IMG/VR virus record: IMGVR_UViG_2778261225_000004
DNA length: 20,622 nt
From: a virus
Taxonomy: Duplodnaviria > Heunggongvirae > Uroviricota > Caudoviricetes
Strand: one strand, 5' to 3'
This document shows, one piece after another, positions 12,250 to 20,622 of the stretch (the stretch's first letter is position 1; every line of letters begins with the position of its first letter). The notes below the pieces were generated by a model, which worked only from the letters and a program-made list of their open reading frames with translations, was not told the DNA's origin and did no database searches. A program made the position numbers and the translations under genes.

Positions 12250-12846
12250 ATGGATTTAGTTCTTTCTGCCCTTAGTTACATAGGGAAAATTTTTTCCAGT
12301 ATTTGGGAATCCAGCCCTACGTTTTATCCAGGTGCTGCGGGTGCGCTTATTGCAGTGATTAGCATACGAAATCAGAGAAAGACATCGCGCGAAAAAAACT
12401 CATTGGATTTTGAGGCTGCATATAAACGTAACAAGGACATAGTTGATGCGTGGTCAGAAGTGTTACGCATTCATAAGGATCGCCATAATTTTCCGATCGC
12501 TGATTGGGGAAAAGAAGAATATTCTCAAACAGATGGAGCAAAAGCATTAAAACTCATTTTTAATGAGTGGGAGCGTTGTGCTAATGCCGTGAATAACGGT
12601 TTGTATGATGAGCGGTATCTATATCGTGTTTATGGTTCTACCTTAATCTTTCTTGATGTCCATTTTGAACCTTATATGGAGGAGTGCCGCAAGCGTAATC
12701 CTAGGTTTTACCGTAACTTAAAATGTCTTGCTCTCCGATGGCGTGTTAGGCGAGCGTATGAAGATCAGGAAAACGATAGTAGGGAATACAAAAAACTGCT
12801 CAATGAGGCTAAGCGATTGGTAGACAAATTGCATACCAAATTCTGA
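12250..12846 (+). CDS. Hypothetical protein, 198 aa, single N-terminal transmembrane anchor plus a charged soluble domain; cargo gene at the P2 tin/old-equivalent position
   Basis: Clean ORF in an AT-rich island (visibly lower GC than the flanking phage genes). The N-terminus (FYPGAAGALIAVISI) is hydrophobic; the rest is Lys/Arg/Glu/Tyr-rich. It has its own terminator and is convergent to parR. No family was recognised from memory. Confidence 0.75.
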   Translation: MDLVLSALSYIGKIFSSIWESSPTFYPGAAGALIAVISIRNQRKTSREKNSLDFEAAYKRNKDIVDAWSEVLRIHKDRHNFPIADWGKEEYSQTDGAKALKLIFNEWERCANAVNNGLYDERYLYRVYGSTLIFLDVHFEPYMEECRKRNPRFYRNLKCLALRWRVRRAYEDQENDSREYKKLLNEAKRLVDKLHTKF

Positions 12847-12884: not shown

Positions 12885-12918
12885 CATCAGGGCGAGTTCG
12901 CCCTGATGTTGTGTTATT
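12885..12918 (+). terminator. Intrinsic terminator (10-bp perfect stem CATCAGGGCG/CGCCCTGATG, loop AGTT, then TTGTGTTATT)
   Basis: Read from the sequence 39 nt after the stop of the 198-aa gene; the U-tract overlaps the stop of convergent parR. Confidence 0.6.
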
Positions 12919-13225
12919 CAGGAAATAACGCCCGGATATTTCCTGCCATCTGACTGGTTATCTGTGCGGTTGGTACTGGCTGTGACATGGGGCGTTCGGT
13001 CCTGGTTTGCGTCACTGATAACGCCTCATCGTCAGCCCATGCAGCCAGTCGGTAAGCCTCTGCCGGATTCATTTTCAGAAGTGCCAGCCCGGCCAGAAAA
13101 GCCACGCGTTGGCCGCTTTTGCGGGCTTCTGGTGTAAGGCTGTCCAGCCAGGCGCATGCATCGCCTTCGTTCTTGACGGCGGCGGGCTTCAGATAGAAAC
13201 TTATCCGTCTGGTTGGTGTCGTCAT
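12914..13225 (-). CDS. parR: ParR-like centromere-binding protein (type II partition adaptor)
   Basis: Internal ATG of track ORF 12914..13360, 5 nt downstream of the parM stop. The N-terminus RRISFYLKP..AWLDSLTPEARKSGQRVAFLAGLALL and the C-terminal IRALFPE resemble remembered plasmid R1 ParR (RTIAFKLNP..LTAGLALY..LRSLFPKE). Confidence 0.7.
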   Translation of the reverse strand: MTTPTRRISFYLKPAAVKNEGDACAWLDSLTPEARKSGQRVAFLAGLALLKMNPAEAYRLAAWADDEALSVTQTRTERPMSQPVPTAQITSQMAGNIRALFPE

Positions 13226-13229
13226 TGGT

Positions 13230-14189
13230 TTACTCCTTGTCCATTGCGTACAGCCCATTAACCAGAGCAAACTGTGGCACCCCGTCCGTGATGAAAGTCG
13301 CATTAACTCCGCAGGCTTCGCGGATAGCGGGTGCCACAATCTCCGCCCCGCCACCGACAACCATCACCCGCCCGTAACCCGAAAAAACCGCCAGCGCGCG
13401 GATCACGCGTTGTTTCAGTGTTTCTTCCTTTTCACGAATAACCGCCATCAGGCTGGCGTAATGCGCGTCATTGTGGATGTGCTGGCGCAGCCAGGCTTCA
13501 TCATGGCGATGTTCGATAATGGTATTGGCGATGTGGTGACTGGTACGCATACCGTTAGTGGCCATCACCGACAGTACGGCATCGGCCATCAGGGAAACGC
13601 CTACGTGTGGATCGCAAAACATCTGGCTGATACCTGCCAGTTGCCCCTGAACCTTTGCCACATCCAGCGTGGTTCCGCCCAAATCCACAATCAGCAGGGA
13701 TTCAAACGGACTCATGTCAGCCAGTGCCTTAAAGCCAGCCGGAATGGATTCAGGCATAACCCGTACGTTACGGATAGTGAATGCTTCGCCGTTCTGGTAC
13801 TCCACCGGGCGCATGACGTTCGCTTTTTTGCGGTTGATGTTGGCCATGTCCGGCTGTGCGTTTGTGTCGAAATATTCGCTCAGTGGCAGGGTGACAACCA
13901 CATCCACTTCCTGTGGTGTGATGCCTGATTTGACCAGCGCGTGGTGAATGGCGATTACATTCACATCGCTGTACTGGTATTGCGTGTCGGTCGTCTGGAC
14001 AAAGCGATCGCTGACCGGATCAAAACCATAGCGCACGCCATCAAGCATGTAGTTCGCGGGCTGCGTGCCACCGAACGGCGCAGACCATTCCGACTTGAAG
14101 CTGTTCGGGCTGATGGCGTTGCGGCGTTCGCCGTTCTCAGTCCATGCCAGCTTGATGTTGGTGGAGCCGTCGTCGATACAAATTTTCAT
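13230..14189 (-). CDS. parM: ParM/StbA-like actin-like segregation ATPase
   Basis: 319-aa ORF with actin-fold motifs collinear with remembered R1 ParM: CIDDGSTNIKLAW, YSDVNVIAIHHAL, VMPESIPAG, LLIVDLGGTTLDV, GVSL, VMVVGGGAE and a C-terminal LVNGLY. Confidence 0.85.
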   Translation of the reverse strand: MKICIDDGSTNIKLAWTENGERRNAISPNSFKSEWSAPFGGTQPANYMLDGVRYGFDPVSDRFVQTTDTQYQYSDVNVIAIHHALVKSGITPQEVDVVVTLPLSEYFDTNAQPDMANINRKKANVMRPVEYQNGEAFTIRNVRVMPESIPAGFKALADMSPFESLLIVDLGGTTLDVAKVQGQLAGISQMFCDPHVGVSLMADAVLSVMATNGMRTSHHIANTIIEHRHDEAWLRQHIHNDAHYASLMAVIREKEETLKQRVIRALAVFSGYGRVMVVGGGAEIVAPAIREACGVNATFITDGVPQFALVNGLYAMDKE

Positions 14190-14265: not shown

Positions 14266-17088
14266 TCATATATCGCGGCGTGTTTTTTGCTCATTTACGG
14301 GATTTGTGAGTCCCGTTTCTGTCTGTTTTTTGTTTCCACTGGTCAGGCTACCCCGCAGCAGGTCTGCTTTGCGGTGGGCGCGTTCAGTGGTTTCACTGAT
14401 TCTCTGTGCGTGCTCTGCGTCACGGATGGCGCGCAGCATGTCAGAAAGCACGGTAACGGGGGTTTTCATGGTGTTCTGGTCCTGCTGAAGTGTGGATGCC
14501 AGACGTGCGGCGGCTTCGGGGTCTGATGCCCCCAGTTGTTCCAGATAGCTGGCGACCGGGTTATGGCGGATCTCTGTGCTGCTTACGCCGTGATTACGGC
14601 TCAGGCGCTGCCAGAGCTGCGTGATTCGGCTGTCCGGGCGGGTATCCGGTTTGCGTACAATTTCAAATCCCTGCGGTGCAATGATGCTGCCGTCAACGTA
14701 CAGGCTGCCGCCCCGTAACAGGTGCTGCATCTGCTGTTCACCGATATGCAGGCCGAGAGATTCGGCAGATTCCCGCCATTCTTTAGCGAGTAATTCGTGG
14801 TTATCAGGCAAAGGCCGCTGCTGTTTGCGGCTCTGTGTCCAGCTCTGCATTTCATCACTGCTGTTTTTTGCCTGTTTGTCACGAAGCGAACGCATCAGCG
14901 CCCGGCGTTCGTGCCGTTTCAGTGAGCGCATCCATTCGTTCACTTCAACGCCATCAGGGAGCTGCGGCCACGGTGCTGGCCGTTCTTCCGGCTGTTCTGT
15001 CCCGTTGTTGTTCGTTTCCTGTACACGGGGACAGTTATTGCCACGAGTCCAAGGGGCGGCAGGGCCGCCCTGAAGGTCAAAACCATTTTCGCGGGCGCTG
15101 TCTTCCGCTTCCGGTTTGCGTCTTACCAGCTTCCAGTTATCCGGATGCGTGCACACACGGGAGGATTCCCCGATGAGTGGTGACCAGATCCCGTAAATCT
15201 GTACGCTCTGTTCGCCGTAATCGTTCAGCTCATCGGCGAGGTCGTAGGCGGTGCGAATCAGGTAGTCTTTGCGTGGAACAAGTACGCCGCCCTGTTTCTC
15301 TATGTAGGTGGCAAAACATCCTGCATCAGCGGCAGCGAGTACCGCATCCATTGCGTCATCCTTCAGCCGTTGCGGGCCTTCCGGGTTGCGTGCCATCTGG
15401 CTGGCAAGGCGGCGGAGTTCACGCCACACCTGACGGGAGGGGATGCCAAAGAACTGGAACTGGCGGACCCGGTGAAGGCGTGCCCAACCGATGGCGCGCT
15501 CCACGCTCTCGGCCATTGATTTTCCGGTTTCGTGGTCAACGCGTGGTTTGCCTGTTTTCGGGTCGATGCCATCCACGGCGCGGCTGTCCAGGTTTTTTCC
15601 GATGTAGGTGGCGATGTAGCTGGTTGGCGTGCCTTTTGAGCCGTCGACATACTCCGCCTTAAAGCGCGGAGTAATATCATCGCCCAGCTCGTGACGATCT
15701 TCCTGAATGGCAATATCGCGGGTGTGGGACACAATGGTGTCGATTTCTTCCGGATGAGCAAAGACCATCATATGCCAGTGCACGGTGCCGTCATGGTGAG
15801 GCTCCACCGTGCGGATGCCATACCAGCGAAGACCGTCGCGGTTCAGTTTCTTGCGGACCGCCGCAAAAAACGTGTTAACCAGGTAATCGCTGGAGTCGCG
15901 CATGGTGGCCCCGTTCCATTTGGGATTCGGATGACCGTTCTCTGTTGTGGCGTGGTATTTTGACGGGCAGGTGACAGTCAGAAACACCGCTTTGTCGCCA
16001 CGGGCTTCGGCCAGAAGTTCCAGCCCCTTCATGGTGGCCATCATTTCTGCCTTACGGTGAACCGGGTTACTTACTCCCGCGTAATACACCGTCTCGAGAT
16101 CAATCGTGAACCCGTCTTCATTTTCCAGCATGAAACTTTTCAGGAAATCGCGTGTTTTCTCGCGCTGTGCGCGAAACTCGCTTAACGCGTCCTGGCTCAG
16201 ATAGGGTGATGTTTTTCTGGAAACCAGACAGGCGGCGCGGAGTTGTTCTTCTCTCCACTCGCAACGTAACAGCCACAGTTTGCGTTTCCACCATTCTGCA
16301 CAGGTCAGGCGAAGGATTGCGCCCGGCAGCAGCTCCGTGTCCGGTTCGTTCCTCCGGTCTTTGTCTGTTGTAAGTGCGTCATAATGTGGAGGCATGGCGT
16401 GCAGGTGTAACGCCATGCGGGCCAGCATCTGATACGCCTTCAGCGTTACATCCATGGTCAGTTCGCCATCGGTCGCGCCAAAGCCATCGCAGAGTTTTTC
16501 GAAGGTGCTGCTGAACATCGCCGCCGTCATGGTGGCCAGTGTCTGTATCTGGTGTTTGTTGAGCTGCGGCAGGTAAAGCAAATCGTCCAGGCGTTCGCGT
16601 CCGGCAAGGGAGCGATAACCCTGTGTCAGCCAGCGGTGATCGGTGCGCTCCAGACGTTCGAATATTTTGCGCAGGTTTCCGCGCGCGTAGCGTTCAGCCT
16701 GCCAGTTCTTTTTGCCTTTCTGACGATCGGCTTCCTGTTTTTTGCGCAGGAAGGAGAGGTGGCGAATAAGCGGATCGCGCAGATAGGACGGCAGCAGGCG
16801 CAGCGAGGCCATGGCTTCATCCACCGCGCCGCGTGCCTGTTTTCTGGCATCTCCTGCCAGTGTGATGGTTTTGTCCTGTTTTTCCTGTGCGTCCAGGCTT
16901 TTATTAATCAGGTTGCCCAGCGGCGTTGCGGAGAACGCCGCATCAGCCATTTCCTGGCGGCGCTCGTTCTCTACCCGGTAGGCATCCAGCCAGGAGGAAA
17001 GCGCGGATTCAGGAGCGGGGATCCCCGTTCCTTCACGCCCCACTGCGTGGCGCGGTTGTTGCCAGTCCCTGATGTACTCTGCCGTCAT
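14266..17088 (-). CDS. A: Replication initiation protein gpA (rolling-circle replication endonuclease) with an extended C-terminus
   Basis: 940-aa ORF at the P2 gene A position (downstream of the early operon, next to the cos-proximal cargo region). The size and a VHWHMMVF-type motif fit the P2 gpA family; about 180 aa longer than remembered P2 gpA (761 aa). Confidence 0.88.
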   Translation of the reverse strand: MTAEYIRDWQQPRHAVGREGTGIPAPESALSSWLDAYRVENERRQEMADAAFSATPLGNLINKSLDAQEKQDKTITLAGDARKQARGAVDEAMASLRLLPSYLRDPLIRHLSFLRKKQEADRQKGKKNWQAERYARGNLRKIFERLERTDHRWLTQGYRSLAGRERLDDLLYLPQLNKHQIQTLATMTAAMFSSTFEKLCDGFGATDGELTMDVTLKAYQMLARMALHLHAMPPHYDALTTDKDRRNEPDTELLPGAILRLTCAEWWKRKLWLLRCEWREEQLRAACLVSRKTSPYLSQDALSEFRAQREKTRDFLKSFMLENEDGFTIDLETVYYAGVSNPVHRKAEMMATMKGLELLAEARGDKAVFLTVTCPSKYHATTENGHPNPKWNGATMRDSSDYLVNTFFAAVRKKLNRDGLRWYGIRTVEPHHDGTVHWHMMVFAHPEEIDTIVSHTRDIAIQEDRHELGDDITPRFKAEYVDGSKGTPTSYIATYIGKNLDSRAVDGIDPKTGKPRVDHETGKSMAESVERAIGWARLHRVRQFQFFGIPSRQVWRELRRLASQMARNPEGPQRLKDDAMDAVLAAADAGCFATYIEKQGGVLVPRKDYLIRTAYDLADELNDYGEQSVQIYGIWSPLIGESSRVCTHPDNWKLVRRKPEAEDSARENGFDLQGGPAAPWTRGNNCPRVQETNNNGTEQPEERPAPWPQLPDGVEVNEWMRSLKRHERRALMRSLRDKQAKNSSDEMQSWTQSRKQQRPLPDNHELLAKEWRESAESLGLHIGEQQMQHLLRGGSLYVDGSIIAPQGFEIVRKPDTRPDSRITQLWQRLSRNHGVSSTEIRHNPVASYLEQLGASDPEAAARLASTLQQDQNTMKTPVTVLSDMLRAIRDAEHAQRISETTERAHRKADLLRGSLTSGNKKQTETGLTNPVNEQKTRRDI
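14299..14338. repeat. Repeat module B (hairpin CGGGA-TTTGTGAG-TCCCG followed by TTTCTGTCTGTTTTTTG) inside the 3' end of gene A
   Basis: Read from the sequence; a direct-repeat partner of module A. Homopolymer lengths in this stretch are uncertain. Confidence 0.3.
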
Positions 17089-17094
17089 AGTGAT

Positions 17095-17460
17095 TTACTT
17101 CGTCATGCCATTCAGGGTGTCGCGGCAGACTGTAGCCAGCCGCTGAATTTCCAGCACGGTGTCTTCTGTGTCGGCATGGCGATGTGTGATGCGGATGCTG
17201 TCGGCAATCACATCGACGATTGCAGAGGATGGGTGCTGGTAAATGCCAATAACGGACGGGGTGCCACCTTCAATGCGGTAAAGCCTGTAATTTCCCTCGT
17301 GGCTGTCAATCATGTAGCGACCATCAATAACAATCTTTCCGTCAGCGAGCTGCGGTACAGGCAGGGATTTCAGGTACATGTCATAACGATCACGCACGCG
17401 AGCGGCAAGATCACGTTCTGTGTTGAGCAGGTATTCAAGAAAGTCGTTGGCGAGAATCAT
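17095..17460 (-). CDS. Hypothetical early-operon protein (121 aa) immediately upstream of A
   Basis: ATG with an AGAGGA Shine-Dalgarno; stop lies 6 nt before the A start; protein-like composition. No family recognised. Confidence 0.55.
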   Translation of the reverse strand: MILANDFLEYLLNTERDLAARVRDRYDMYLKSLPVPQLADGKIVIDGRYMIDSHEGNYRLYRIEGGTPSVIGIYQHPSSAIVDVIADSIRITHRHADTEDTVLEIQRLATVCRDTLNGMTK

Positions 17461-17532
17461 TGCGGCAATCCTCTTGTTACAGATGTGCGAAGGCCTCCCG
17501 CCGCAAGGTGCAGGAAAGGCCCGGAACAGGAA

Positions 17533-17763
17533 TTAATGGAGTTTGTTTTGCTGCTGGATGAGCTGTTGAAGCTCGTGCAGATCATCCGCCAGATAGCTGA
17601 AAACAGAGGCGGAATAAATGTTTGATAGTGCGTGGCTGCGCTCATGCAGCATATTGATGTGCATGATTTGCGCGACGCGTGATGCGCGGGAAAGTCTGCG
17701 GTTGATTTCAGTCTGGATGTGACGACGCTCCGCGATAGCGCGGTGTGGTTTGCGGTTTGCCAT
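17533..17763 (-). CDS. Hypothetical small basic protein (76 aa)
   Basis: ATG start with an AAGGGG Shine-Dalgarno-like element; same strand as the early operon. No family recognised. Confidence 0.45.
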   Translation of the reverse strand: MANRKPHRAIAERRHIQTEINRRLSRASRVAQIMHINMLHERSHALSNIYSASVFSYLADDLHELQQLIQQQNKLH

Positions 17764-18085
17764 GGTGTGGCCCCTTGTGTAGTAAGTTGTGAAAACTCAC
17801 CATCCAGAGCTGCGAAACTGTGGGTGGCGAGACGTACGAGGTTCGCAGTACCGGCTACACAAGAACCCGGCCCGACCGAAGTCGGCCCCGTACGCCCCGC
17901 CATAATTCTGACGCGAAAAAAACGTGGCAATACAGTACGCACAAAAAAACCGCTGGCGCGGTTGTGCGCTTGTGTAGTCAGCAGGCTGCGAAACCCGGCA
18001 CCCGTTTTGTGAGGTGCAGCGGAAATGTAACCTGACTGATTGCGGCATGGCAAGCGGTTTTTTTGTGTGTGCATGTTCTGGTTTC
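17764..18085 (-). other. 322-bp non-coding block inside the early operon with repeated CTTGTGTAG and CTGCGAA(A)C modules (two direct, one inverted) and stable hairpins; candidate structured RNA or protein-binding/ori-like element
   Basis: No credible ORF on either strand (track ORFs here are Arg/Pro-rich or low-complexity). Motif CTTGTGTAG at about 17774 and 17969 with its reverse complement at about 17855; CTGCGAAAC at about 17810 and 17986 with GTTCGCAG at 17841; GC-rich hairpin with a C-UUCG-G loop on the minus-strand transcript at about 17866..17890; CCGCTGGCGCGG preceded by A7 at about 17943..17962. Confidence 0.3.
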
Positions 18086-18385
18086 TTAGTGGTTCAGAAA
18101 AAAATCAAAAACCTTGTCAATGCGTTGCAGCAGCTCTTGCTGTATTGCTTCCGGCGTTTCCGGTTCGCCTGGCGCCTCCAACGTCGCGCAGAAATCCTCG
18201 ATTTCATGACGGAGCGTCAGGCGAATGGCGAGAGGTGTGGTTCTGGCGTGCTCCAGCTCATCCAGCAGCGCCAGCACTGCAGACGGCGAGAGCATTGCGC
18301 GAAACGCCAGTAATTTTTGAGGCGTTGCCATTCGTTGCAGGTCAGTCGCCAGTTCGCGTAATTCCTGGTGGTTGATGGCGCTCAT
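18086..18385 (-). CDS. Hypothetical acidic early-operon protein (99 aa)
   Basis: ATG overlaps the upstream stop (ATGA coupling); protein-like composition. No family recognised. Confidence 0.55.
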   Translation of the reverse strand: MSAINHQELRELATDLQRMATPQKLLAFRAMLSPSAVLALLDELEHARTTPLAIRLTLRHEIEDFCATLEAPGEPETPEAIQQELLQRIDKVFDFFLNH

Positions 18386-18627
18386 GCTCTGGCTTCCTTC
18401 AGTAGCTGGTTAAACATGTTGGTAAGTGGATTGCCGCACCCGAACGGCATCGGGTTTATCTGGTAAGAAAAGCGACCGCCTGTTTTGCGCTCTTTTCTTA
18501 TGACTGAACCGCTGCGCCAGAGTCGGCGTAACTCCGCATTAATGGCTGTGGTTGGGGTATTCAGTGCTGCGGCGATTTCTCCACCGCTACACCCCGGATT
18601 GGCGGCGATATAGTCCAGAATGGTCAT
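18382..18627 (-). CDS. Small putative winged-helix DNA-binding protein (81 aa)
   Basis: ATG overlaps the upstream stop (ATGA); the segment GGEIAAALNTPTTAINAELRRLWRSGSV looks like a helix-turn-helix. Fold assignment is inference only. Confidence 0.5.
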   Translation of the reverse strand: MTILDYIAANPGCSGGEIAAALNTPTTAINAELRRLWRSGSVIRKERKTGGRFSYQINPMPFGCGNPLTNMFNQLLKEARA

Positions 18628-18827
18628 CTGCGTGACTCCTGTACCTGTCGGATAAGGTTCACCCGCACCACATTCGTGGCGCAGAAGTAAGTGCCGTCAG
18701 TGAGATAGATGTGATGTGCATTCTTTTCTGAACGGTGTTTGTCGATTGTGGTAATCAGGCGTTCGTCGACTTCGTATTCACGCCCTCTGGAGGTAAAACG
18801 AACGACAGGAAAATGCTTAATTGCCAT
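18624..18827 (-). CDS. Hypothetical early-operon protein (67 aa)
   Basis: Strong AAGGAGGTG Shine-Dalgarno before the ATG at 18827. Confidence 0.55.
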   Translation of the reverse strand: MAIKHFPVVRFTSRGREYEVDERLITTIDKHRSEKNAHHIYLTDGTYFCATNVVRVNLIRQVQESRR

Positions 18828-18913
18828 TACACCTCCTTGGCGTGTGCGAATACCTCCGCGAATGCGGATTGTTTTTACATTTTCTTATTTAATCTGTGGT
18901 TTTATTTGCTCTG

Positions 18914-19027
18914 TTATTCGCCAGTGAAAAAGCGTTCAATCTTTTTTATTGAATGAATAATTCGCATAATCCCAATAGCGCAGGCCACCGAAATAATCAG
19001 AACAAGCCATGAGATAAATATACTCAT
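18914..19027 (-). CDS. Micro-ORF encoding a 37-aa single-pass membrane peptide (MSIFISWLVLIISVACAIGIMRIIHSIKKIERFFTGE)
   Basis: ATG overlaps the stop of the upstream 80-aa gene (ATGA); hydrophobic helix followed by a basic tail. Below the track length cut-off; found by manual translation. Confidence 0.3.
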   Translation of the reverse strand: MSIFISWLVLIISVACAIGIMRIIHSIKKIERFFTGE

Positions 19028-19266
19028 GCGATATTCCCCAGCTTATACGGTTCAATATGTTCCCCGCATTCTGCGGCACAGATCAGCTCGGAAAGTTCGT
19101 TAAGTGCATCCAGATCATCAGCGTAAAAAGCCACGTCATACAGACTTCGGATTGCTCTGGTCAATGAGTCACGGGCCGCACGTTCAGCATGAGCGCCTGA
19201 TGCACTTAAGCGAAAATAAAAACGCTCAAGTGCTTTGTTAATGAGAGTTTTATATTCTTTGCCCAT
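19024..19266 (-). CDS. Hypothetical early-operon protein (80 aa)
   Basis: Track ORF 19024..19269 (GTG); the ATG at 19266 is preferred. Protein-like acidic composition. Confidence 0.5.
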   Translation of the reverse strand: MGKEYKTLINKALERFYFRLSASGAHAERAARDSLTRAIRSLYDVAFYADDLDALNELSELICAAECGEHIEPYKLGNIA

Positions 19267-19277
19267 CACAACGCCCT

Positions 19278-19565
19278 TTAATCTGCTTTCTGTATTTCAG
19301 CTTCTGAATCCATACAAATAATTTCGATATAGGGTTCATCGCCATTAACCTGGCGTGCCTTTTCAGCTTCGCTAATGATTTCTCGTACGGTCTGGTACGG
19401 AAGTTCCACAAGCAGTCGCGTGCCGTTCAGATAAACGTAAGTGGCTTCGTCGGCTCCGTTTTTACCCGCCGGAGTCACTCCGTCAATAGCGGATGCACGT
19501 AATAACAGTTCACCGCGAAAATCAATAAAACGGATAAATACACCTTGTGCATGGTCTTTGGTCAT
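19278..19565 (-). CDS. Hypothetical early-operon protein (95 aa)
   Basis: Internal ATG of track ORF 19278..19679, chosen because the upstream part overlaps the 113-aa ORF; starts 10 nt after that ORF's stop. Confidence 0.45.
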   Translation of the reverse strand: MTKDHAQGVFIRFIDFRGELLLRASAIDGVTPAGKNGADEATYVYLNGTRLLVELPYQTVREIISEAEKARQVNGDEPYIEIICMDSEAEIQKAD

Positions 19566-19575
19566 AAAGCGCCTG

Positions 19576-19917
19576 TTATAAATCAGCCTGTTTAATAAAA
19601 CTTTGCCCGCGAAGCAGACGATCAACCGTGCGAAGTGCTTCGTATAATGTGAAATCCTGCCCGAACTGATTGTCGCCACTGCTTAGAGCAAAAATGCGGT
19701 TTCCGGTAAACGGATTGCGTGGGCATTTGTGGATCACGATTCCAGCTTTCTCAATCAGCCAGGCATGCTCGCCGATTTGTTTTACTGGGTAGCCATCCGG
19801 CGTTGCGTGTGTATCACTCAGGCTGTAGCGGATGTTGCTGCGTGATGCACTGGTAGCAAAACGGTTAGCGTGGCGTTCTGCACCATTGCGAAAGCGTGAA
19901 TTACGTTGCTGTTTCAT
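19576..19917 (-). CDS. Hypothetical early-operon protein (113 aa)
   Basis: ATG at 19917 lies 1 nt after the stop of an upstream micro-ORF (translational coupling). No family recognised. Confidence 0.5.
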   Translation of the reverse strand: MKQQRNSRFRNGAERHANRFATSASRSNIRYSLSDTHATPDGYPVKQIGEHAWLIEKAGIVIHKCPRNPFTGNRIFALSSGDNQFGQDFTLYEALRTVDRLLRGQSFIKQADL

Positions 19918-19918
19918 G

Positions 19919-20026
19919 TTAAAGACTCTGTACAGATTTAATTATTCCGGCATAGAGGCCGAACTCAAAATATTTGCGATTAAATCGCATCGCATTGTTT
20001 TCACGTTTTGCGGACTGCTGGTTCAT
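19919..20026 (-). CDS. Micro-ORF, 35 aa (MNQQSAKRENNAMRFNRKYFEFGLYAGIIKSVQSL)
   Basis: GGAGG Shine-Dalgarno about 10 nt before the ATG; ATG overlaps the stop of the preceding micro-ORF (ATGA). Found by manual translation. Confidence 0.25.
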   Translation of the reverse strand: MNQQSAKRENNAMRFNRKYFEFGLYAGIIKSVQSL

Positions 20027-20130
20027 TTTCGTTTGCCTCCGCACATGAGAATTGCGCCGCTTAAGAGGTAACCGAAGTTAATTGATAGTATTACAATTAA
20101 CATAAGGTCCAATTTGTCCATGCCACACAT
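20023..20130 (-). CDS. Micro-ORF encoding a 35-aa hydrophobic peptide (MCGMDKLDLMLIVILSINFGYLLSGAILMCGGKRK)
   Basis: GAGGGT Shine-Dalgarno before the ATG at 20130; one transmembrane-like helix and a basic C-terminus. Found by manual translation. Confidence 0.25.
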   Translation of the reverse strand: MCGMDKLDLMLIVILSINFGYLLSGAILMCGGKRK

Positions 20131-20169
20131 AATTACCCTCATTGCAGTAGTTGTGGGTTGTCAGGTTTC

Positions 20170-20376
20170 TCACCCGATAAACCAGATAACAAACGCTATA
20201 AACATCGCCCCAATAGCTGCCGGGAAAAGTCCTTTGGTATAAGCGGCGATATATTCAATGCTGAGTTCAATAAAGCGTTCTTCATGTCCCGTTAACTTGC
20301 GAAACAAATAGATCTCTATTACGCCTATCTCAATAAAAACAAGGGTCAGAATGGCGCTGATGATATGGCTGGTCAT
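20170..20376 (-). CDS. Small membrane protein (68 aa, two predicted transmembrane helices)
   Basis: Track ORF with hydrophobic segments ISAILTLVFIEIGVI and AAIGAMFIAFVIWFIG; first gene downstream of cox in the early operon. Confidence 0.5.
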   Translation of the reverse strand: MTSHIISAILTLVFIEIGVIEIYLFRKLTGHEERFIELSIEYIAAYTKGLFPAAIGAMFIAFVIWFIG

Positions 20377-20382
20377 TTATGA

Positions 20383-20622
20383 CTAAAGTCCCAGCCACAA
20401 CAACCATGCGTCGCGGCGTTCTTTCGGTTGCTCAAAAAACGCTTTGCGCATGCCTTCGTTAAATGCTGGCAGATATACCCAGTTTTCTGATGCACGCGTC
20501 TTTACTGAACCTGGTTTCACAAAGTCAATTGTCGGTAGCTTTGCTCTGAGAGATCCCCTCATAATTTCCCCAAAACGTAACCATGTGTGAATAGATTTTG
20601 AGTAAGCAGGGTTGCAGCCACG
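20383..20622 (-). CDS. cox: Cox-like excisionase/transcriptional regulator, C-terminal part; the 5' end lies beyond the window
   Basis: Manual translation of the minus strand gives ..AKLPTIDFVKPGSVKTRASENWVYLPAFNEGMRKAFFEQPKERRDAWLLWLGL, closely matching the remembered C-terminal half of P2 Cox (..GKLPVIDMTDPQSASGRAGEYWVYLPAWNNGLKLAYESRPKEIRDGWLMWLGL). The frame stays open to the window edge. Confidence 0.7.
   Translation of the reverse strand, partial: RGCNPAYSKSIHTWLRFGEIMRGSLRAKLPTIDFVKPGSVKTRASENWVYLPAFNEGMRKAFFEQPKERRDAWLLWLGL

Follow-up and report, generated by a model that had tools for sequence, protein, structure and literature searches.

A 20,622-nucleotide (nt) stretch of Caudoviricetes DNA (IMG/VR record IMGVR_UViG_2778261225_000004), the whole of which we call the window, contains three short open reading frames (ORFs) near its right-hand end: ORF A and ORF B, of 35 amino acids (aa) each, and ORF C, of 37 aa. 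These ORFs are probably real small protein-coding genes of the Pe-type early operon of a P88-like prophage, translated in relay, with the A and C products located in the inner membrane. The evidence comes from the reading frames themselves, the geometry of their coupling, their hydrophobic architecture, purifying selection, distribution and synteny. We regard them as ordinary small phage early genes, which appear in public annotation as hypothetical proteins and belong to no described family. All three ORFs (37, 35 and 35 aa) had been proposed in a first-pass annotation of this DNA, and they were present where it had placed them, with identical translations.

Conservation of the reading frames

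We compared 129 related loci, drawn from genomes, IMG/VR, metagenomes and Logan assemblies; 83 P88-like loci were usable for counting cassettes and junctions, and ORF C was searched in the first 86 sequences. A scan of GTDB genomes with DUF4761 returned three loci only. Individual loci and alleles are cited by numbers prefixed L or P.

Across 30-45% nucleotide divergence, the A, B and C frames contained no stops and carried an excess of synonymous change (permutation P 5e-5 to 1e-2). This signature of purifying selection covered A, C and the N-terminal 27-29 codons of B, and antisense and alternative frames were broken. The first-pass annotation had called the three ORFs small coding sequences and had named loss of their frames in related phages as one outcome that would refute this; the frames were conserved, and together with the excess of synonymous change they bear the proposal out. 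Because 63 ORFs of ≥20 aa overlap positions 17500..20622 (3.1 kb), ORF length alone is no evidence for A, B or C, and they stand above chance because their frames are conserved in relatives.

Operon structure and translational coupling

ORFs A, B and C and all of the early genes listed here, from cox to the gene for the MarR-type protein, lie on the minus strand.

20383 to beyond 20622, minus strand: cox, 3' part, Cox family DNA-binding protein, first gene of the Pe operon, running off the window end (annotation of near-identical loci)
20170-20376, minus strand: m68, annotated 68-aa hydrophobic protein (phrog_14475)
20023-20130, minus strand: ORF A, predicted 35-aa single-pass membrane peptide (ORF, Shine-Dalgarno sequence, hydrophobicity, homologues)
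19919-20026, minus strand: ORF B, 35-aa basic peptide (ORF, Shine-Dalgarno sequence, conserved motif)
19576-19917, minus strand: DUF4761 gene, 113 aa (domain match)
19278-19565, minus strand: p95, 95-aa protein (ORF list/annotation)
19024-19266, minus strand: DUF4754 gene, 80 aa, predicted three-helix bundle (domain match, AlphaFold2 model)
18914-19027, minus strand: ORF C, predicted 37-aa single-pass membrane peptide (ORF, hydrophobicity, homologues)
18624-18827, minus strand: 67-aa protein (ORF list/annotation)
18382-18627, minus strand: MarR-type winged-helix protein (ORF list/annotation)

Window positions 18600-20545 share 99.6-100% identity with prophages of many E. coli chromosomes and with Xuanwuvirus P884B11, and on the strength of this match we assigned the host element to the P2-like E. 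coli prophages (P88-type, Xuanwuvirus, Peduoviridae). In the annotation of near-identical loci, a cox-family gene comes first and is followed by small ORFs and replication gene A, all on one strand, which is the layout of a P2-type Pe operon; the Pe promoter lies outside the window, and the operon type was read from this annotation. In the same loci, a divergent helix-turn-helix repressor gene and an integrase gene sit past cox, just outside the window end. The replication endonuclease that follows the small genes corresponds to window positions 14266-17088 and carries a Phage_GPA domain. Placement of the three ORFs in an early operon, as first proposed from the sequence, agrees with this Cox-led arrangement. 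A promoter scan of positions 17000..20622 returned sites at chance level.

The final 77 bases of the window (20546..20622, the N-terminal half of cox) did not align to E. coli prophages that are otherwise 100% identical, which points to a mosaic junction within cox and is consistent with immunity-region exchange.

The stop codon of A and the start codon of B overlap as ATGA, and this overlap was found in all 24 loci with both A and B. The DUF4754 stop and the C start overlap in the same way, as seen at the C start in 82 of the 83 loci as extracted; the Salmonella C orthologue starts at another ATG, also inside an ATGA overlap, and the 4-nt overlap at the C start was kept in the Salmonella and L130 orthologues. 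B ends 1 nt before the DUF4761 ATG (TAAcATG), in another frame, with the same 1-nt spacing in 22 loci. Stop/start overlap or near-abutment was kept across relatives at all three junctions (A/B, B/DUF4761 and DUF4754/C); by this geometry, A, B, C and their neighbours are predicted to be translationally coupled operon genes. A has its own Shine-Dalgarno (SD) sequence, GAGGG, 5 nt upstream of its start, and B has GGAGG 9 nt upstream. Duplex energies between the SD and anti-SD were -6.1, -9.5 and -5.5 kcal/mol for A, B and C, respectively, versus -3.9, -2.4 and -2.5 kcal/mol for the annotated neighbours m68, DUF4761 and p95, so that the SDs of the three ORFs are at least as strong as those of their neighbours. 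Both the sequence reading and these energies confirmed the earlier claim that each peptide has either ATGA-type coupling or a good SD.

In the rare Logan alleles P0060 and P0062, A and B are merged into one 70-aa ORF or A is lengthened to 62 aa; these indels at the ATGA junction mark the A/B overlap as a fragile point. Two further features overlapping B were considered and dismissed: a weak terminator-like hairpin within B (19994..19975), which is not conserved in diverged B forms, and an antisense 79-aa plus-strand ORF (19832..20071), which is interrupted by a stop in the diverged relative L063.

ORF C

The translation of ORF C is MSIFISWLVLIISVACAIGIMRIIHSIKKIERFFTGE (37 aa). Its hydrophobic segment at residues 3-21 has a Hessa sum of -2.9 kcal and a Kyte-Doolittle (KD) value of 2.7, with four Lys or Arg residues in the C-terminal flank. 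Conserved residues include S6-W7, the small residues S13, A17 and G19, and the juxtamembrane pattern RII..KKIE.FFTG(E/D).

C was detected in 85 of the 86 sequences searched, and the exception (L064) is a short locus. Thirty distinct full-length alleles showed 20 synonymous and 14 nonsynonymous changes in frame, compared with 8:26 and 3:31 in the other frames (P = 5e-6). The positional orthologue in Salmonella is 50 aa long, and the L130 orthologue is 41 aa long; both retain the transmembrane (TM) helix and the basic flank together with the overlap, and the L130 orthologue has a pN of 0.23 versus a pS of 0.74. C is a core gene of the P88-like early operon and among its best-conserved genes, yet it is without a family, a name or a known function. 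Using an alignment of C, we searched profiles against 1.84 billion representative proteins; this search returned 17 clusters, which indicates a narrow family, and no link to a named family.

Locus L005 (NZ_JBQPOM010000071.1, labelled Vagococcus sp. WN89Y) is a 226-kb contig of a Gram-positive assembly that holds an enterobacterial P88-like early operon, with an ORF C one residue apart from that of the window (I27V). This contig most likely represents contamination or a mislabelled assembly.

ORF A

ORF A encodes MCGMDKLDLMLIVILSINFGYLLSGAILMCGGKRK (35 aa), with the pattern MCG-DK-DL ... NFG-LL-SG ... KRK. The start at position 20130 is taken as correct because its SD is properly spaced and all homologues begin with MC(G/D) behind an AAGGAG-type SD. 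A hydrophobic 19-residue segment at residues 9-27 has a Hessa sum of +0.1 kcal (-1.1 in the L063 form) and a KD value of 2.1; its N-terminal flank has a net charge of -1, and its C-terminal flank, LMCGGKRK, a charge of +3. With a hydrophobic segment and C-terminal positive charge in each, A and C are predicted single-pass inner-membrane small proteins. The first-pass annotation had given two of the peptides one TM helix and a basic tail, which holds for A and C; B is basic and non-hydrophobic.

Homologues of A fall into three clades, each of exactly 35 codons, in which 34-36 of 105 nt differ with 13-14 residue changes. The uncorrected pN/pS is ~0.4, and the dN/dS after Jukes-Cantor correction is ~0.22; the permutation P value was 5e-5 against L063 and 0.011 against L130. 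L130 encodes a homologue of 36 aa (MCDLSKAELIAIILFAIDFGFLLSGAILLPAINRKN), preceded by an AAAGGAG SD, directly 3' of a cox-like gene. At the DNA level, the DUF4761 core alone aligns between L130 and P88-like phages. In all clades the A helix has a mid-helix polar residue (Asn/Asp18) and a G20xxx(S/G/A)24 motif.

ORF B and its junction with the DUF4761 gene

ORF B encodes MNQQSAKRENNAMRFNRKYFEFGLYAGIIKSVQSL (35 aa), with a pI of 10.2, a net charge of +4 and no hydrophobic segment. Within its first 27-29 codons, the motif RFxRxYFxxGxYAG is conserved across four structural forms, namely a 35-aa form, a 48-aa form, a 62-aa form and an in-frame fusion to DUF4761. Between these forms, 36-40 of 87 nt are changed (permutation P 1e-4 to 1e-2). 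A C-terminal part, (I/K)(I/V)KSV(Q/S)(S/T)(L/I), is common to the standalone forms of the window and L063.

The arrangement of B and DUF4761 varies among relatives. In L089, L102 and L112, A is ATGA-coupled straight to a DUF4761 gene that begins MNKQQ(C/R)NSSQQRF; L083, L123-L126 and L128 carry an in-frame fusion of DUF4761 with a B-like segment of 36 codons; and in L047, L062 and L065, B is 48 aa long and other genes lie between B and DUF4761. B thus occupies what elsewhere is the DUF4761 start, and these arrangements place it at the apparent ancestral start of the DUF4761 gene. B had been proposed as a third, independent basic peptide: it is basic and conserved, but it is not simply independent, as it lies on the DUF4761 start and is fused to DUF4761 in relatives. 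B resembles the DUF4761 N-terminus in M(N)KQQxN only, and in most comparisons not significantly (shuffle P 0.006-0.6); for this reason we dropped the idea that B is a duplicate of the DUF4761 N-terminus and retained the positional argument only. In the AlphaFold2 single-sequence model of DUF4761, a basic N-terminus (residues 1-32) that is predicted to be disordered precedes a beta core. This series of separate, abutting and fused genes is a compact natural case of gene splitting or fusion at a coupling junction.

Given the weak SD of DUF4761 (-2.4 kcal/mol), translation of B probably passes ribosomes on to DUF4761 by termination-reinitiation, a mechanism that has been documented generally (cited in PMC11188072). 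The junction ..AGU CUU UAA C AUG AAA.. is also similar in shape to the +1 frameshift site of prfB (CUU UGA C), from which it differs in having UAA rather than UGA as the stop and CAGAGU with no strong SD-like element at the right distance; some relatives have TAAA. A +1 slip at CUU would give ..SVQSL-N-MKQQRN.., that is, a B-DUF4761 fusion beside free B and free DUF4761, and the single-frame fusions encoded by the six sister phages named above provide a precedent for such a product. We consider this slip very unlikely; if it were to occur, one locus would yield three products in a ratio set by termination efficiency.

Distribution and annotation

Of 5,426 complete E. coli genomes, 1,343 (about a quarter) carry C, among them O157:H7, O26:H11 and O145 strains, and 235 carry the A+B interval. 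Among the 83 usable P88-like loci, the interval between cox and DUF4761 is mosaic and most have nothing there; m68 with A and/or B is present in 27, and some loci have DUF4761 immediately after the same cox type. A was never found without B and m68 among the 83, and m68 was present in every locus holding A or B except L130, which has the A homologue alone. We conclude that m68-A-B is an optional accessory cassette. When A, B and C were searched with TBLASTN in 50,697 phage records, matches came from P88-like (Xuanwuvirus) phages and one Citrobacter phage only.

The peptides had been expected to be missed by annotation, and this proved true of A and B in bacterial RefSeq genomes, where the A+B interval had no annotated feature in 30 of 30 sampled of the 235 genomes. 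It did not hold for C, which the annotation pipeline PGAP calls a hypothetical protein (WP_000021652.1) in 30 of 30 sampled of the 1,343 genomes and which is labelled "membrane protein" in phage P88, nor for A and B in phage records: they are gp42 and gp43, respectively, in NC_049391 and are both annotated in PhiR44_2. The absence of A and B from the RefSeq annotation of >200 genomes illustrates how short coupled genes are dropped by bacterial pipelines and kept by phage annotators.

Family, structure and literature searches

Scans of A, B, C and m68 against Pfam, PHROGs, NCBIfam and PADLOC gave no usable match. For A, B and C, nothing in Pfam or NCBIfam, toxin families included, reached E ≤ 1 beyond noise (DUF6007 and PET117 at E ~0.2), and no toxin, holin, defence or host-takeover family was matched. 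The first-pass annotation had noted that small membrane peptides of phage early operons are often host-takeover or toxic factors; for A, B and C our results speak neither for nor against this reading, which stands as a guess. Neither a PADLOC model nor a functional PHROG connected A, B, C or m68 with defence or superinfection exclusion. Rfam returned no RNA match over A, B or C, and C4 and isrK at 17820..18030 were the sole RNAs found. Protein searches with A, B and C queries extended by in-frame upstream residues returned close Escherichia relatives named "hypothetical" only. AlphaFold2 single-sequence models of DUF4754 and DUF4761, compared with the PDB using Foldseek, gave no significant fold match or functional lead. 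Our literature search turned up neither a paper on DUF4754, on DUF4761 or on the three peptide sequences nor any data on the expression or phenotype of A, B and C; the papers on Xuanwuvirus were unrelated.

Proposed role and alternative explanations

Following P2-family organization, the operon would be silent in the lysogen and transcribed from Pe when the repressor is lifted or on infection; the immunity repressor is reported to block Pe (PMC1904263). Ribosomes would then pass in relay from cox through m68 and A to B (ATGA) and DUF4761 (TAAcATG), and further on from DUF4754 to C (ATGA). A and C may insert into the inner membrane with the short N-terminus outside and the basic C-terminal side in the cytoplasm. 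The conserved polar and small residues of their helices suggest packing against another membrane protein, possibly the phage m68 product for A, and a host inner-membrane protein or the DUF4754 product for C; a host target for either peptide is as possible as the coupled neighbours m68 and DUF4754. B would be a conserved basic peptide, and its translation would also bring ribosomes to the DUF4761 gene, whose own initiation is weak. On a far more speculative and very unlikely reading, A and C could represent two new families of phage early membrane microproteins aimed at host inner-membrane machinery. If either proves to bind a host membrane protein, it would join the few membrane microproteins of phages for which a target is known. 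The existence of A, B and C will not surprise phage specialists; their value lies in annotation and as candidates for expression and phenotype screens.

Several observations weigh against this account. The permutation tests behind the P values given above assume equally mutable sites, and the pairwise comparisons are not independent. In the recent lineage of the window, m68-A-B is nearly invariant and its variants are mostly nonsynonymous (synonymous:nonsynonymous, A 0:1, B 1:4 and m68 3:8, too few to inform), so that recent constraint on the cassette cannot be shown; the annotated gene m68 has the same pattern as A and B. C has a frameshift allele of 45 aa in 7 of the 83 loci (~8%), in which a 1-nt deletion in the T5/T6 run at 18925..18935 (codons 32-34; e.g., L024 and L076) replaces the conserved FTGE end, changing ...ERFFTGE to ...ERFSL(A/V/T/M)NN..NKT...; the allele is also found in many database clusters. 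It occurs on at least four haplotype backgrounds, which indicates that it is recurrent or spread by recombination, and the 37-aa form looks ancestral because deeper homologues keep FTG(E/D). B is unstable, with a variable C-terminus and frameshifted or truncated copies (L090, L121 and P0071), and is absent from several relatives. Finally, A, B and C have no homology to characterized proteins in Pfam, PHROGs, NCBIfam or PADLOC that would support a specific function, and we found no paper or dataset on their transcription, translation or membrane insertion.

If A, B and C were chance open frames in AT-rich intergenic or leader DNA, with no functional product, then the abundance of short ORFs in the region (63 in 3.1 kb), the lack of PGAP annotation for A-B, the missing Pfam, PHROG or NCBIfam family and the mostly nonsynonymous recent variants of A and B would all be in keeping. 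Against this, frames, lengths, starts, SDs and ATGA overlaps are kept over 30-45% divergence with an excess of synonymous change, for C the synonymous signal is confined to its own frame, L130 has homologues of A and C amid flanking DNA that can no longer be aligned, and stops occur in the alternative and antisense frames; we regard chance as extremely unlikely. It is just as improbable that A and/or C are the toxins of type I toxin-antitoxin systems, that is, peptides that damage the membrane unless an antisense RNA represses them and that would here stabilize the prophage. Their size of 35-37 aa, single TM helix and basic C-terminus (...KRK) are as in the Ldr, TisB, Fst and Hok-class toxins, and prophages are known to carry type I systems (review PMC12648545). 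Yet no Pfam family was matched at E ≤ 1, no Rfam antitoxin RNA lies over A, B or C, and a crude consensus scan, itself a weak negative, found no plus-strand promoter-like site in 17000..20622. A and C are instead embedded and ATGA-coupled in a tight operon, without a promoter and folded 5' untranslated region of their own, and, being presumably silent in the lysogen, they would run contrary to the requirements of an addiction module.

Two further explanations concern parts of the locus. The m68-A-B cassette might lie outside the core lytic programme and serve as an accessory "moron" in membrane-based superinfection exclusion or anti-defence, and it fits this description in being optional (27 of 83 P88-like loci, and 235 E. 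coli genomes compared with 1,343 for C), in the direct joining of the same cox type to DUF4761 in some loci and in having predicted membrane proteins as two of its three products. We consider it rather unlikely, as no PADLOC or functional PHROG match was obtained, a cassette inside a repressed early operon would not protect the lysogen, and the L130 homologue of A, found without m68 and B, indicates that m68-A-B is not an obligate unit. A possible but doubtful explanation is that B is a non-functional remnant split off from an N-terminal extension or duplicate of DUF4761 and kept open as a relay or leader ORF. The relatives in which A is coupled directly to DUF4761 and those in which a B-like segment is fused to it speak for this, as do the stop and 1-nt offset that part B and DUF4761 in the window, the DUF4761 SD (the weakest in the operon), the variable C-termini and damaged alleles of B, and the 4:1 ratio of nonsynonymous to synonymous recent variants. 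A pure relay would have no need of the RFxRxYFxxGxYAG motif, however, which is kept at the protein level in all B forms (P 1e-4 to 1e-2); the C-terminal part shared by the standalone window and L063 forms and the limited, mostly non-significant likeness to the DUF4761 N-terminus also argue against a remnant. We favor the reading of A, B and C as small early genes.

Other elements of the window

Inside the early operon, Rfam identified a C4 antisense RNA (RF01695, 83 bits) and isrK (RF01394, 64 bits) at 17820..18030 on the minus strand, accompanied by weak a1/b1 target sites. The next gene after them (17533..17763) encodes a 76-aa protein of the "Derepression" family, and the region 17533..18030 as a whole looks like a P1/P7-type c4-controlled antirepressor module in a P2-like prophage. 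NC_049391 has a 205-aa "transcriptional regulator" (17457..18074) annotated over the C4 and isrK RNAs; this call is probably spurious.

A ParM/StbA actin-like segregation ATPase is encoded downstream of replication gene A, at 13230..14189 on the minus strand (StbA_N, 1.8e-82), together with a plasmid stability protein of the StbB type (minus strand, within 12914..13360); a DUF4760 protein lies on the opposite strand (12250..12846). A plasmid-type partition module is unexpected in an integrating P2-like prophage.

ORF C is followed by an 86-nt gap that contains, at 18855..18878, a short GC hairpin (TCCGCGAATGCGGA) with a T-run behind it on the plus strand. This terminator-like hairpin is opposed to the operon and could block antisense read-in or be due to chance.

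Comparison with known systems

Small accessory ORFs are found in other P2-family early operons, such as orf78-orf83 of P2 and fil and dhr of phage 186. Like these, A, B and C lie between cox/apl and replication gene A in the Pe transcript and are small, packed and variable. They were not found in P2 or 186 in the TBLASTN search of 50,697 phage records, which makes them positional analogues of the P2 and 186 ORFs rather than homologues. The enterobacterial type I toxins Hok, Ldr, TisB, Ibs and ShoB are 19-50 aa long and have one hydrophobic helix, with basic residues towards one terminus. A and C share the length, the single helix and the basic end, and differ from them in that no family match, antisense RNA or promoter was detected for them and in being operon-embedded and coupled.

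Lambda Kil and T7 Gp0.4 are early phage small proteins that disable host processes, and both act on FtsZ (review PMC11323111). They are <50 aa, early and non-essential for the phage, features that A, B and C would share, whereas no sequence similarity was detected by Pfam scan. The small membrane regulators MgrB, AcrZ, MgtS and PmrR bind larger membrane proteins (review PMC12648545). Their likeness to A and C is one of architecture only (single-pass, ~30-50 aa, with polar and small helix residues); these regulators are chromosomal and stress-regulated with known partners, whereas A and C are phage early genes. The "Entero67K" collection contains 67,297 clusters of conserved intergenic small ORFs of Enterobacteriaceae, mostly hydrophobic (PMC11188072). 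A and B are comparable in lying in RefSeq-intergenic DNA, in their 35 codons and in being under purifying selection, and A is also hydrophobic; A and B are, for their part, annotated in at least two phage records.

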